A stretch of DNA of 46,775 bases, from the IMG/VR virus record IMGVR_UViG_2721755725_000017; one strand, given 5' to 3'. The position numbers are program-made. Shown piece after piece: positions 36,001-42,000 of the stretch (position 1 is its first letter; each line of letters begins with the position of its first letter). Source of the stretch: a virus. Taxonomy: Duplodnaviria; Heunggongvirae; Uroviricota; Caudoviricetes.

Positions 36001-39000
36001 TAAGGCATCCGCCAGGTCATTACGAATCAGCCACCAGCACAGTTCCGGCATTGTCACAACGTGACTGTCATCAAAACCGAGATCCCGACGCACAACAGAC
36101 AACACCCAGCGGGTACAGTTATCCGTTGCCATTGATTCCAGCCGTTCCGTGAACTGATCGCGCAGCTGGTTATCGCAGTGCCAGCACAGACGGATTGCGC
36201 CCGGCGTGTGTGATACAGCGCGTATACGATGAAAATCATCAGGTGTACGGTGTGCGTAAAGTCTGGCGTCAGTTGTTACGGGAAGGAATCAGGGTGGCCA
36301 GATGTACAGTGGCACGTCTCATGGCGGTTATGGGACTTGCCGGTGTTCTCCGGGGTAAAAAGGTCCGTACGACCATCAGCCGGAAAGCCGTTGCCGCAGG
36401 CGACCGCGTAAACCGTCAGTTCGTGGCAGAACGACCTGACCAGCTGTGGGTGGCTGATTTTACTTACGTCAGCACATGGCAGGGCTTCGTCTATGTGGCG
36501 TTTATCATTGATGTGTTTGCCGGATACATCGTGGGGTGGCGGGTCTCATCGTCTATGGAAACGACATTCGTGCTGGATGCGCTGGAGCAGGCGTTGTGGG
36601 CCCGTCGTCCGTCTGGCACCATCCATCACAGCGATAAAGGCTCTCAGTATGTGTCACTGGCCTATACGGAGCGACTAAAAGAAGCCGGATTACTGGCATC
36701 AACAGGGAGTACAGGCGACTCGTATGACAACGCGATGGCTGAGAGCATCAATGGTCTTTACAAAGCGGAGGTAATACACCGTAAGAGCTGGAAAAACCGT
36801 GCAGAAGTGGAACTGGCCACACTAACGTGGGTGGACTGGTATAACAATCGACGATTGCTGGGAAGGCTGGGCCATACTCCTCCGGCAGAAGCAGAAAAAG
36901 CTTATTATGCTTCCATCGGAAACGATGATCTGGCAGCCTGAGTTCACAGATAAAACACTCTCCAGGAAACCCGGGGCGGTTCAGGTGTTCAGCGACGCTG
37001 ACCACCAGCTGTTGCGACAAACGGTTATTTGCCGTTAAACTGTTCATGCGTTAGTTTCTCCACAGACACAAAACGCCACGACGCCCGGAGCTGCACACTC
37101 GCGGGCGTCACTCTTTTCTGGAGCGCAAAAGATTTTGTAGACCAGTGCTGCATGCTCCTGGAGCTTCGAAATTGACAGATACAACTCATCATTAATTGCT
37201 GTCTGCTCGTGTGGCTCCACTACCCCATCTTCGATTGCCGAACGAATCTGCTTTGAGTAACTCCCGATCTGTTCGATGACTTCCAGCAGGCGCTGGTTTA
37301 TATCGGCGTTCTCTACTTCCTCAAGTTCAGGAAGCGATACAAACACCCCACCAGCAGACTGTGCGACAGCATCCGCAATGTAGTGAGTGCCAGCCGCGCG
37401 CTGTAAAATCATTGCCCATCCCAGCGGGAAAATCTGATCGCCATCTGCACGAAGGCGGTTGAATAAAGCGTTCTCTGTTACATCCAGCCACTCAGCAGCT
37501 TCAGCGTAACCCCCCGGCAACGCCGCGATAGTTTTTCTGACAGCTTTCACGTACCACTCAGGCTGTTTTTCCACTTTCCAGTGATGCTTACCCACGGCTT
37601 ATCTCCTGTTCCTGTGGTTTAAACCCATTCTGGTTTTGGCTAGATTGAAAACGTGCCGGATAAAGAATCTGCATTTCGCTGATTTCACCCTTAAAAAAAT
37701 TGGCCAGACGTTCTGCAAGATCGATAGATGGAATTTGTTCCAGTCTTTCAATACGACTCAGCGTCGCTGTATTGACCTGAACGCCCGCAGCAACATGCTG
37801 CAAAGTAAATCCGTGCGCCTTACGCACATTCCGTAATGGTGATTGCATATAACCTCCACATATTGCGTGATGAGCATATTATTTCACGCAAATATTTTGC
37901 GCAAGTTGATTTGCTTAACGCGCAATAAAGAAATGTAATAAACGCATGAACATAGGAAATCGAGTCAGACAACTTCGCCAGGCGAAGAACATGAAAATCG
38001 CCGATCTCGCTGAAGCAATAGGAGTGGATGCGGCGAATATCTCGCGCCTCGAAACAGGTAAGCAGAAACAATTCACTGAACAAGCCCTGAGTAATATTGC
38101 CAGGAGCTTAGGTGTTGATATTGCTGATCTCTTTACCTCAGACCTCAAAAGTAATACTGTATGTAAAAACAGTATTAGTGAGGATGTTGCGCAGGTGAAG
38201 GATGTATTCCGTATTGAAATGCTGGATGTCAGTGCCAGTGCGGGAAATGGCCTTATCCAGGGCGGTGATGTCATTGATGTGATTCATGCCATTGAATACA
38301 GAACTGATAATGCTGTATCGATGTTTGGTGGACGACCAGCAAATCACATTAAAGTTATCAACGTTCGTGGGGACAGTATGTGTCCAACCATTGAGCCAGG
38401 AGATCTCATCTTCGTTGATATCAGTATCAATCAGTTTGATGGGGATGGTATATATGTATTTGGTTTTGATGATAAAATTTACGTCAAACGACTGCAAATG
38501 ATACCTGATAAACTGCTGGTAATTTCTGATAATCAGATTTACCGCGAATGGGGAATTACCAGCGAAAACGAACATCGGTTTATGGTCTTTGGAAAGGTCT
38601 TAATCAGTCAGTCACAAACCCTTAAGCGACACAATTAACCCCCTACCTCAACATCAATTAGCCACCAGAAGGTGGCTTTTCATTACCCACCAAATTGCAT
38701 ATCTCGCAATAAAAACACTTGCATGATGCGCAACTTCATTTTATCTTTCTTTCCAGACCTACAAACAAGGTACTAACAAAATTTGGTTGTAACACGGCGT
38801 ATGGCACATGCGTCGTTAGCGGTCTGGGGACGTTAAAGGGGACAATCCACTCCTTGCTCGGGCAAACAAACCAGGTAGCCGGAATGTGCAAGTCAATGAG
38901 GATGCTGATAAGACGCCTAACCAGCGTGGCGATTCGGTTTGACGCCTGGGAAGAGACCAGGGTGCAACGATGAGGGCATTTATGGAACCGCGACAAAGTG

Positions 39001-42000
39001 TGGTGCCGTAACTGGCTAAGTGCTCTCAGCGTTGTGGTAATCCGCGAAATGGCGCGGCGGTAAGTATGGCGGGGTTATTCCTTCCCCGTTGAGGACACCG
39101 GGTTGTCAGGTTGACCATACGCTTAAGTGACAAGCCCACCACAACAGCCACTGCTTTGGCGGTACCAGTTTGTACACTTGCTTCCGGCTGGTACCGCTCT
39201 TTTTACAAAACAGAGAAGAGCATCACCGGACGACGGGCTCATAACCCAATCCACCCGGGCGGCTGCCACCGCAGGTGTTCTTCTCTGTTTTGTGGAGAAA
39301 CCAACCGACCTTGCAGGGTCGATATGATGAGGAGCAGCAAAATGGCTAGCGAACGCAGTACTGATGTGCAGGCATTTATCGGGGAGCTGGACGGCGGCGT
39401 ATTTGAAACCAAAATCGGCGCAGTTCTCAGTGAAGTCGCTTCCGGTGTGATGAACACGAAAACCAAAGGTAAGGTCTCACTCAACCTGGAAATCGAACCA
39501 TTTGATGAGAACCGTGTGAAAATCAAACACAAACTCTCATATGTTCGCCCGACTAACCGCGGGAAAATTTCCGAAGAAGACACCACCGAAACGCCGATGT
39601 ATGTCAATCGCGGTGGTCGCCTGACTATTCTGCAGGAAGACCAGGGACAATTACTGACTCTTGCCGGTGAACCTGACGGAAAACTCCGCGCAGCAGGTCA
39701 TTAATATCGTTCTTAATTAACTGATTATTTATCTCATCACTGAATATCTTTATATAGTGAGGACTTATTATGTCTCAGAACTTAGACGCAACCGCAATTA
39801 ATCAAATCCATGCCCTTATTTCTGCTCAGGGTGTTAATGAAATTATCAGTAAGATTGGTGCCGATGCTGTGGCATTGCCTGAGAATTTCCGCATTCATGA
39901 TCTGGAAAAATTTAATTTAAATCGCTTCCGTTTCCGTGGTGCGCTTTCCACTGCCAGCATCGATGACTTTACCCGTTATTCTAAAGATCTTGCAGATGAA
40001 GGCACCCGCTGCTTTATTGATGCTGATAATATGCGTGCCGTCAGTGTGCTTAACCTGGGTACTATTGATGAACCAGGTCACGCAGATAACACCGCCACTC
40101 TCAAACTGAAAAAGACAGCACCGTTCTCTGCTCTGTTGTCTGTTAATGGCGAGCGTAACTCCCAGAAATCACTGACAGAATGGATTGAAGACTGGGCCGA
40201 CTACCTTGTGGGCTTTGATGCTAATGGTGACACCATTCAGGCAACAAAAGCGGCTGCGGCGGTCCGTAAAATCACGATTGAAGCAAACCAGACCGCTGAT
40301 TTTGAAGATAATGACTTCAGCGGCAAACGCTCCCTGATGGAGTCTGTCGAAGCGAAGACCAAAGACATTATGCCAGTGGCATTTGAATTTAAATGCATTC
40401 CGTTTGAAGGTCTGAAAGAACGTCCGTTTAAATTACGCCTCAGCATTATCACTGGCGATCGTCCGGTACTGGTTCTGCGCATTATTCAGCTGGAGGCGGT
40501 GCAGGAAGAAATGGCTAACGAATTTCGTGATCTGCTTGTTGAGAAATTCAAGGACAGCAAAGTAGAAACCTTTATTGGTACTTTCACCGCCTGATTTCAT
40601 TACTGCAAATGCCCCTGAGGGGGCATTTATGGAAACGTAATTTACTCAATAATCGCCGGATGGTGAGGGATTCTTTTTACCAGAATTCAGCGCGGTGCAG
40701 CGCATATACGTGGAGAACAAAATGTCATTTATTAAAACTTTTTCCGGGAAGCATTTTTATTATGACAGGATAAATAAAGACGACATCGATATTAACGATA
40801 TCGCGGTTTCCCTTTCAAATATCTGTCGCTTTGCCGGTCATCTTTCGCACTTCTACAGCGTCGCCCAACATGCGGTTCTTTGCAGCCAGCTGGTACCGCA
40901 GGAATTTGCTTTTGAAGCATTAATGCATGATGCAACAGAAGCGTATTGCCAGGACATCCCCGCTCCACTGAAACGCCTTCTTCCTGACTATAAACGGATG
41001 GAAGAAAAAATTGACGCCGTAATCCGTGAGAAATACGGGTTACCCCCAGTTATGAGTACGCCCGTGAAATATGCCGATCTTATCATGCTGGCAACCGAAC
41101 GCCGCGATCTCGGGCTTGATGATGGCTCTTTCTGGCCTGTACTGGAAGGCATCCCGGCAACAGAGATGTTCAACGTGATTCCACTGGCACCTAGCCATGC
41201 CTACGGGATGTTTATGGAACGTTTTAACGAGTTATCGGAGTTACACAAATGCGCATGAATGTTTTCGAAATGGAAGGGTTTCTTCGCGGGAAATGTGTAC
41301 CGCGAGATCTGAAAGTGAATGAAACAAATGCTGAGTATCTGGTGCGTAAATTCGATGAAGTACGTGCTGAGGCTCGCAACGAGGGTATTAACTATACCGC
41401 AAGCCGTCTTGCTGCTGCTTTCAATCACGGATTTATCAATAAGCCTTTGGCTGAAGTTTTCGACGTTACACGCATGATTCTGTCAGCAAAAGAAGAGTTA
41501 GCTAATGAATCGCATCCGATTGATGGCCTGTCCGGTGAATATGCAGAGAAATCCCTTGAAGAATGGGCGGAACGGCTTCGCAAAGGAGGCAGCCAGTGAC
41601 TGGACATGCAGCAATCCTCGACATGTGCTGTGGCAGTCGCATGTTCTGGTTCGATAAGAATGACGACCGGGCGATATTTAGCGATATCAGAAAGGAAGAG
41701 CACACATTGTGTGATGGACGACGCCTGATTATCAGTCCTGATCTGATAGCTGATTTTCGTGCACTACCATTTGCAGACGCATCTTTTTCGATGGTTATAT
41801 TCGACCCTCCGCATCTTGAGCGTGTTGGTGATAACGCCTGGATGGGAAAGAAATATGGACGGCTGAATAAAGATACCTGGCGTGATGATTTGCGGCAGGG
41901 ATTTAAAGAAGCCTTTCGTGTGTTGCGTCCATCCGGCGTTCTGATTTTTAAATGGAATGAAACGCAAATACCTGTTCGCCAGATATTGGTACTGACCGAC

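Follow-up and report, generated by a model that had tools for sequence, protein, structure and literature searches.

The early-left leader of an N-less lambdoid prophage is probably a tandem array of three structured RNA modules containing a DicF-like small RNA unit

We describe the early-left leader of a lambdoid prophage, the interval between the putative promoter pL and the gene yfdP (positions 38745-39341 of IMG/VR record IMGVR_UViG_2721755725_000017, whose 46,775 nucleotides (nt) are hereafter the window). The reading that we favor, with a probability of about 0.6, is that this interval is the non-coding untranslated leader of a repressor-controlled pL operon: it would consist of three folded RNA modules arranged in tandem, here termed A, B and C, with a DicF-like small RNA (sRNA) unit that ends at a real intrinsic terminator (T) and with yfdP expressed by read-through. 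The interval is non-coding; the folds of its three modules are supported by covariation; the sRNA unit has the dicF locus and sRNA-17 as homologs; and its terminator is both stable and positionally conserved. The original prediction, made from the DNA sequence alone, had taken the interval as one structured leader with either attenuation, put-like antitermination or an sRNA as its possible role, and had missed the mosaic of three separately conserved modules. DicF and sRNA-17 themselves have been published; the join between them, the conserved body 5' of dicF and modules A and C as folded RNAs are found neither in Rfam 15 nor in the full texts searched.

The gap in the gene map is genuine, as the original prediction had it: no plus-strand open reading frame (ORF) of at least 20 codons with a Shine-Dalgarno (SD)-like motif starts inside 38745-39341, yfdP does start at 39342 as the first early-left gene, and the PGAP annotation calls nothing in the interval. 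BLAST searches against phages divide the interval into three parts with different relatives: 38781-39037 matches phiV10, TL-2011b, SPN1S, P1/P7 and mEp390; 39031-39153 matches PPompW- and Evi-type phages and nearly every Escherichia coli chromosome; and 39157-39345 matches SfV, SfII and ST64B. Modules A, B and C appear to recombine independently among temperate phages. The interval is 100% identical in E. coli E2855 (NZ_AP018796.1), and at least 80% of a 706-nt leader query is present in 999 of 5,426 complete E. coli genomes; 4,786 of these genomes have at least a partial match to this query, which in the sampled rows is mostly module B. The leader is more stably folded than expected (z = -3.8 for the whole and -6.1 for 39140-39345), and the alignment of related prophages, proposed earlier as a way to look for compensatory changes, uncovered covariation in all three modules. 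Against Rfam 15 no module has a match at the gathering threshold or at E<=10; ARAGORN finds no tRNA or transfer-messenger RNA in the interval; and a full-text literature search for three invariant motifs returned no paper that contains them.

Module A is a seven-helix structured RNA of approximately 235 nt (38792..39027, plus strand). Its structure was built by hand and tested on 25 sequences: in this alignment (A3) 96.3% of the cells of its 37 pairs are paired, as against 29-44% when the alignment is slid, 18 pairs are changed on both sides, and none of 500 shuffles reaches the observed values. The seven phage copies display invariant blocks, such as GGTAGCCGGAATGTGCAAG, separated by segments of very variable length, and the length of the core varies between 141 and 183 nt by increments not divisible by three, with no frame being kept. 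A covariance model of the core (R2) detects a single copy in the window (38792-38964, 141 bits). A scan for the block just given with one genome per species recovered 24 further loci: one is a chance match in a coding region of an Oscillospiraceae genome and the remaining 23 are from Enterobacterales genomes and metagenome bins, with hosts including Kosakonia, Citrobacter, Klebsiella, Kluyvera, Phytobacter, Buttiauxella and Erwinia dacicola. The genomic settings of module A are diverse: in lambdoid phages (the window, mEp460 and mEp390) it lies just 3' of the repressor gene; in P1 its place is in the C1-controlled ban operon, with trnI on one side and ban on the other; and in the epsilon15-like Uetakeviruses it is directly 5' of a tRNA-Arg (locus positions 2501-2818 and 1443-1742), the start of which corresponds to window position 39034, where module B begins here. 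In the P1 record (NC_005856.1) module B (68739-68828) comes right after the promoter P1ban, overlapping what is annotated as a 'dicF-like region', and module A follows at 71010-71194; neither is annotated as an RNA, and a literature search on the 'dicF-like' region of P1 returned nothing useful. In Superficieibacter electus the 3' end of an sRNA-17-type body (…CCGGCCACCACAAC) is found directly upstream of module A (~4365-4393 of the locus, minus strand); therefore, the modules can occur in other orders or as arrays.

The body of module B (39031..39145, plus strand) is predicted to fold into a closing helix, GUUGUGGU/ACCACAAC, that encloses three hairpins and a pseudoknot formed by GUAUGG (39063-68) and CCAUAC (39115-20), the P1 version of which is GCAUGG/CCAUGC. 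In an alignment of 25 sequences (A8) its 31 pairs are paired in 94.3% of the cells, versus 29-57% upon sliding, and nine of them are changed on both sides. This body is 97-100% identical to a sequence in the Qin prophage of E. coli K-12 that ends a few bases before dicF, and it occurs upstream of dicF in approximately 88% of complete E. coli genomes. Its 3' neighbor in viral contigs (n=127) is a canonical DicF in 72 cases, the variant hairpin of the window in 30 and some other cassette of a hairpin plus T-tract in 25; because of this split we consider the B body the conserved partner of an exchangeable 3' cassette. Two architectures stand out: the Qin type, with B followed by DicF and an element resembling the STnc100 family (55 contexts), and the type seen here, with A followed by B, the variant hairpin and C (22 contexts).

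The hairpin that follows B in the window is the intrinsic terminator T (39156..39204, plus strand). The strong terminator of the original prediction has stood up well: a perfect 10-bp repeat (39159-68/39188-97) is part of a 13-bp stem (39156-39197) with a 15-19 nt loop and the tract UCUUUUU, a predicted stability of -21.2 kcal/mol and a pair probability of 0.98 in the context of the full leader. The sequence of the T hairpin varies between phages while its position is kept. Its alignment with the DicF stem bears on the likeness to DicF that had been noted originally, which proved real but local. The segment TTTGGCGGTA(C/T)CAGTTT, the 5' arm of the DicF stem, is common to the window and K-12 dicF, and the upstream 107 nt are 97-100% identical; beyond the shared arm the loop and the 3' arm diverge, and 19-20 nt after the B body, including the 5' end and seed of DicF (UUCUGGUGACG), are absent from the window. 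This accounts both for the likeness noted and for the failure of Rfam to detect DicF: the DicF model (RF00039) has no match in 38600-39450 even at E<=10, while as a positive control K-12 dicF scores 76.7 bits against a family gathering threshold of 48 bits. DicF itself was hence rejected, the covariance model being silent and both the 5' segment UUCUGGUGAC(G/A) and the DicF loop UUUUACUCCGUGAC being absent (alignment A1).

The genomic setting is nevertheless that of DicF: T lies 3' of the conserved body B, inside a repressor-controlled early operon, and the unit ends at a hairpin followed by a U-tract. The closest parallel is the ydfABC-dicF-dicB operon of Qin, which has in common with the window the position in a repressor-controlled early-left operon, the 115-nt upstream body, a homologous 5' arm of the terminator stem, and an sRNA closed off by an intrinsic terminator, past which read-through gives expression of the protein genes. 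It differs in its ACUCC-bearing loop and 3' arm, in having the ~20 nt of the 5' end and seed that the window lacks, in its 3' partner (an STnc100-like element and dicB in place of module C and yfdP), and in its product of 53 nt as opposed to the 175 nt predicted for the window. In K-12, termination together with RNase E yields the 53-nt DicF, RNase III acting on the read-through transcript yields a 72-nt form, and DicF pairs with ftsZ and other mRNAs in an Hfq-dependent manner (PMC9438474). That the window most likely repeats the design of the Qin dicB operon with other cassettes is a proposal drawn from this comparison.

The reading of the interval as an sRNA locus, one of those raised originally, finds support in a second homolog. 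sRNA-17 of E. coli K1 RS218 is a 193-nt RNA from an mEp460-like prophage that was mapped by rapid amplification of cDNA ends (RACE) and Northern blot (Song et al. 2020, PMC7719688). We located it by placing its published primers on mEp460 and on the window, rather than on the RS218 genome (NZ_CP007149). The polarity of the Northern probe and the RACE primers indicates that sRNA-17 is transcribed in the pL sense and ends at the same terminator hairpin: primer fullF matches the window at 32 of 32 positions (39172-39203) and the mutagenesis arm at 39 of 39 (39154-39192). The 5' start of sRNA-17, CGTTGTGG, is present at 39030. Mapping by these primers, together with a fold like that of sRNA-17 in mEp460, delineates a predicted 175-nt unit consisting of the B body and hairpin T (39030..39204, plus strand), with the loop UUUGUACACUUGCUUCCGG. 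The two RNAs thus share an identical terminator hairpin, the 5' start CGUUGUGG, the neighbors on both sides (module A 5', module C and yfdP 3') and an overall fold in which a closing helix and a branched body are followed by a spacer and a hairpin. They differ in the central cassette, which is of ~135 nt in sRNA-17 and of the Qin type of ~115 nt in the window; here the probe matches at 27 of 50 positions and the RACE primers at 11-15 of 18-22, as against 100% in mEp460.

In terms of the present modules the 'promoter fragment' of Song et al. is module A, and their quantitative PCR (qPCR) amplicon (38781-39156) spans A and B, implying that A is co-transcribed with B. Deletion of the sRNA-17 body raised yfdP from 0.49 to 47 reads (~96-fold) and yfdR from 0 to 8.5 reads (PMC7719688), which fits co-transcription with the downstream genes. 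The ArcA-dependent expression and the effect on survival in blood are reported for RS218 only (PMC7719688).

Module C (39200..39298, plus strand) has a stem of 20-25 bp that includes the U-tract of T and a three-way apex, in which an arm, CGAC-GGGCUCAUAACCC-AAUCCA, is combined with a hypervariable hairpin. The inverted repeat ACAAAACAGAGAAG/CTTCTCTGTTTTGT noticed originally belongs to this stem: the perfect 14-bp part is present and extends to 25 nt with 84% complementarity, and pairing of GGAGA with the U-tract of T lengthens the stem to 25 bp in the window. In an alignment of 26 representatives (A7) 96% of the 29 pairs are paired, versus 38-50% upon sliding, with six pairs changed on both sides. 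The apical motif occurs in at least 120 viral contigs in 63 distinct versions; the conserved arm is unchanged even in ST64B and Flotzy, two copies that BLAST rather than the motif brought up, and the other apical hairpin is very variable in length. Of 116 distinct contexts upstream of C, 114 have a T-tract ahead of it, and what stands before the T-C pair in this census (n=116) includes A and B (22), A and the sRNA-17 body (11), STnc100-like elements (34, i.e. 25+9) and no recognized element (21). Module C is the constant 5'-untranslated region (UTR) element of yfdP. By analogy it is probably an RNase III or translation-control element, its duplex of 20-25 bp being a plausible RNase III substrate. 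The pL leader of lambda offers a parallel in that it too is long and precedes the first early-left gene, with a long hairpin just 5' of the ribosome-binding site of that gene; the window differs in having no N gene, no conserved boxA and an sRNA terminator inside the leader. The lambda N leader has an RNase III site.

The elements that replace A and B before the terminator, C and yfdP in SfV, ST64B and other phages are sub-threshold elements resembling the STnc100 (RF02076)/PasD family, which is reported to be diversifying among prophages (bioRxiv 10.64898/2026.05.13.724894). These elements have in common with the window the closing-helix theme GUGGUGAAU...CACCA, but A and B fail the STnc100 model, and a bona fide STnc100 is found elsewhere in the window (33707-33915). 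The sub-threshold elements (35-40 bits) were observed at 1982-2191 of locus L011 (K-12 Qin), 2336-2551 of L005 (SfV), 1766-1950 of L039 and 1298-1416 of L037; that of Qin follows dicF and overlaps the start of dicB, and those of SfV, ST64B and an Actinobacillus phage are part of the early-left leader, taking the place of A and B in the first two. The Pas sRNAs of the same study were rejected as candidates for the interval, as they map to other prophage regions.

From these data we infer the following course of events, in which pL as the promoter, the generation of the sRNA 5' end by processing, the read-through and the action of RNase III on C are all deductions. Once pL fires, RNA polymerase would transcribe A and then B, and most transcripts would stop at T, with a 3' end at ~39204. 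A cut at the junction of A and B (~39030) would leave the 175-nt sRNA. Body and hairpin are expected to stay joined, as in the 193-nt sRNA-17, because the ~20 nt with the RNase E site and 5' seed of DicF are missing. Some polymerases would read through T to give the yfdP-yfdQ-yfdR mRNA, and in this longer RNA hairpin C would form ahead of the ribosome-binding site of yfdP, taking up the U-tract.

Several points weigh against this scenario. T looks strong (-21 kcal/mol), and read-through would have to occur without N or put; the action of RNase III on C is drawn by analogy; and the putative pL is absent from a simple consensus promoter scan. The evidence of expression comes from RS218-type sRNA-17, that is, from another strain and another body variant, and as the central body differs (probe 27/50) a trans-acting function need not match. 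The resistance cassette could itself account for the increase of yfdP in the deletion mutant. Further, Song et al. placed an ArcA-regulated promoter inside module A and detected the RNA in lysogens that had not been induced, a state in which pL is expected to be under repression (PMC7719688).

This last point leads to a different reading, unlikely in our view, in which an ArcA-repressed promoter within the DNA of module A would drive the sRNA as a separate gene, module A being conserved as promoter and regulatory DNA and not as RNA (Song et al. 2020). Phospho-ArcA shifts a fragment equivalent to 38781-39030, the RNA seen in uninduced lysogens falls under low oxygen, and two GTTA repeats 17 bp apart are found at 38812-38832. 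The compensatory changes in 18 pairs of A nonetheless point to selection on RNA pairing rather than on DNA sites; a consensus scan finds no sigma-70-like plus-strand promoter inside the interval; and the authors' own amplicon has A transcribed along with B. In the part of their text that was searched (PMC7719688) there is no experiment to distinguish a primary 5' end from a processed one, although an internal promoter could still exist in addition to pL. We regard as improbable a polycistronic non-coding precursor cut by RNase P at tRNA-like closing helices, with GUUGUGGU/ACCACAAC as the mimic of an acceptor stem and with module A set free as a separate stable RNA. The tRNA-Arg that starts right after A in the Uetakeviruses, at the equivalent of 39034, the position of A after trnI in P1, the coincidence of the sRNA-17 5' end with the base of the closing helix and the covariation of that helix are all in keeping with it, and the C4 RNA of P1/P7 is an RNase P product. 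Yet neither ARAGORN nor Rfam detects a tRNA-like element, there is neither a T-loop motif nor a conserved CCA after the helix, and the closing helix has a pair probability of just 0.03-0.43 in the full-leader ensemble. An attenuator or riboswitch, whether through competition of GCUCUU with AAGAGC around T or through A or B as a ligand sensor, is very improbable. A terminator within a long structured leader and the aptamer-like pseudoknotted junction of B would suit such a device, and the GCTCTT/AAGAGC pairing proposed originally does exist in the sequence. Its probability in the ensemble is, however, ~0: it costs +18.7 kcal/mol and leaves most of the T stem intact, and lying 3' of the U-tract it comes too late to act before termination, so that it cannot work as an attenuator. 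The supposedly exclusive structures in fact co-exist, as T and the long hairpin, in the minimum-energy fold; no fold of 39030-39204 disrupts T; Rfam has no riboswitch match; and the free exchange of A, B, the sRNA-17 body and STnc100-like elements before the same T and C is unfitting for a sensor coupled to T. We give the least credence of all to a hidden small-protein gene, for which there are three candidates: an 84-amino-acid ORF (38719-38973), the minus-strand ORFs of mEp460 and the Stx2k phage, and an in-frame extension of yfdP from 39111. Hypothetical proteins are annotated in several phage records, on either strand over A, B and C, as in mEp460 (3097-3650 of the locus) and phiSTEC1575-Stx2k (2580-3196 of the locus), and the yfdP frame is open for 77 codons 5' of the ATG (39111-39704), through T and hairpin C. 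But the 84-residue ORF starts upstream of the likely transcription start and, as in the remainder of the interval, neither an SD-linked start nor a Pfam match is found, on which grounds coding potential was rejected; the conserved cores are split by indels that are not multiples of three, with no frame preserved among homologs, and the helix substitutions in all three modules are compensatory. Given the covariation and indel patterns, the gene calls in mEp460 and phiSTEC1575-Stx2k are spurious, and we judge the open yfdP extension a chance occurrence because it lacks an SD and its homologs have such indels in the variable apical hairpin.

The other mechanism that had been proposed at the outset, a put-like processive antitermination element, did not bear out in its put form. 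We built a put covariance model (R1) from HK022 putL, reconstructed from its sequence and the numbering of the cryo-electron microscopy structure (PMC9378689), aligned with the put RNAs of HK639, phiEt88, CobraSix and S9-5. R1 recovers HK022 putR, which was outside the training set, with 34.8 bits (E 6e-8), but has no match in the window or among seven related leaders (including mEp460, P1, SfV, mEp390, ST64B and Flotzy); on the leader alone it stays at noise level, with at most 3.2 bits even with filters off. Reciprocally, model R2 of module A has no match to any put RNA, filters off included. The put elements of HK022 and HK639 resemble the situation here in being structured RNAs just past pL in N-less lambdoid phages, but they are of ~70-126 nt with two or three stem-loops, as opposed to the 235-nt, seven-helix module A. 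They act at two sites, putL and putR, while the window has a single copy of A and no second, putR-like one; the pR operon is, however, cut by an insertion sequence (IS), and HK639 too yielded only a putL-like element. Read-through by put depends on the zinc-binding domain of the RNA polymerase beta' subunit (PMC9378689). We observed that the first hairpin of module A (ACGGCGUAUGGCACAUGCGUCG, 38796-38815) resembles stem I of HK022 putL (ACGGCG…CAUGCGUCG; locus 680-704, minus strand), and that ACGAUUUACCAGC of HK639 resembles the module A hairpin CGAUUCACCAUCG. The shared motif ACGGCG...CAUGCGUCG was rejected as a sign of kinship to put, there being neither statistical nor covariance-model support for it in either direction.

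The absence of an N gene, as claimed originally, was confirmed: none of the ORFs near pL is Arg-rich and N-like, and the first eight early-left proteins include no member of an antiterminator family. A lambda-type N/nut system was thus rejected, with no small Arg-rich N protein being first in the pL operon, as was a conserved boxA (GCUCUUUA), since CGCTCTTTTTACAA at 39194 has more than three mismatches to the rrn boxA and GCTCTT is present in only 2 of 26 homologous leaders. That module A is a cis-acting, non-put processive antiterminator RNA, which replaces N in carrying polymerase past T and later terminators, is an unlikely alternative that still has several facts in its favor: the window has neither N nor put; A has a conserved, elaborate fold; it heads repressor-controlled units (the pL leaders of mEp460, cdtI and mEp390) and comes just after promoter/operator-like sequences in its Kosakonia and Uetakevirus copies; a strong terminator stands between pL and the first gene; and a put-like mechanism in N-less relatives has been speculated upon (PMC12315714). 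Set against these are the failure of the covariance models to link A and put in either direction, the single copy in the window, the location of A 2.3 kb from the promoter in P1 and its position before a tRNA rather than a terminator in the Uetakeviruses. Moreover, about half of the leaders with T, C and yfdP are without A (STnc100-like element, T and C, 25+9; no recognized element, T and C, 21); therefore, passing T does not generally depend on A.

With regard to its surroundings, the prophage is reversed in orientation relative to the lambda map. On the minus strand are a cII-like gene (37595-37044, Pfam Phage_CP76) and cro (37848-37588); on the plus strand are the cI-like repressor gene (37946-38638) and yfdP (39342-39704), followed by yfdQ (DUF2303), yfdR and further early-left genes. 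A hairpin with a T-run 3' of the repressor gene (38660..38683, plus strand), terminator-like on both strands, ends the repressor transcript. An exact-match scan of the 46.8-kb window finds four TTGC-N7-GCAA palindromes, three of which flank the repressor gene (37911, 38695 and 38719); the latter two (38695-38709 and 38719-38733) are the predicted OL operators. The putative pL (38719..38747, plus strand) consists of a -35 element TTGCAT, a 17-nt spacer and a -10 element TATCTT. It was placed here, with a likely start near 38754, because the palindrome at 38719 overlaps TTGCAT and TATCTT follows 17 nt on; this is a placement read from sequence. Likeness to phages of other immunity types starts at ~38775, just past it. 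At the other end of the leader a small hairpin, GACCUUGCAGGGUC, precedes the SD GAGGAG (39331-36) and the yfdP start codon at 39342 (39306..39344 in all, plus strand; from sequence and fold).

Further afield, the cII-like gene is immediately followed, going in the direction of pR, by a transposase fragment of the IS3 family (IS1203-like; 36195-36941); therefore, the early-right operon looks interrupted and the prophage may be defective. AgvB (33647-33706, plus strand, 56.2 bits) is head-to-tail with the strong STnc100 (33707-33915, minus strand, 175.6 bits), and three minus-strand tRNA genes adjoin this pair (region 34028-34276). The early-left operon also encodes an Rv2179c-like 3'-5' exoribonuclease (43610-44185; Pfam E 1.3e-75), whose gene neighbors that of a DUF551 protein (42879-43613).

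These findings resolve an apparent gap in the prophage map into defined parts. As its three modules are without Rfam entries, annotation pipelines leave such leaders blank or call spurious ORFs in them. The classic DicF and sRNA-17 emerge as members of one modular lineage, with a conserved body and an exchangeable hairpin cassette, which is located within the early-left leader in a large group of lambdoid prophages without N. The question of how N-less phages pass a strong terminator is narrowed: put, nut/boxA and an attenuator are excluded here, and module A, which stands first in early transcription units of lambdoid, P1-like and epsilon15-like phages, is a testable candidate. More speculatively, and in our view improbably, A and B may represent two undescribed classes of structured phage RNA: A could be an RNA, unrelated to put, that acts on the transcribing polymerase to give processive antitermination in N-less phages, or a stable titrator of a host factor, and B a functional domain (a processing scaffold or a binder of a ligand or protein) rather than a mere 3' UTR of ydfC. 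If A or B does have a function of its own, the known phage RNAs would be joined by new classes, shared by P1 and epsilon15-like phages as well.

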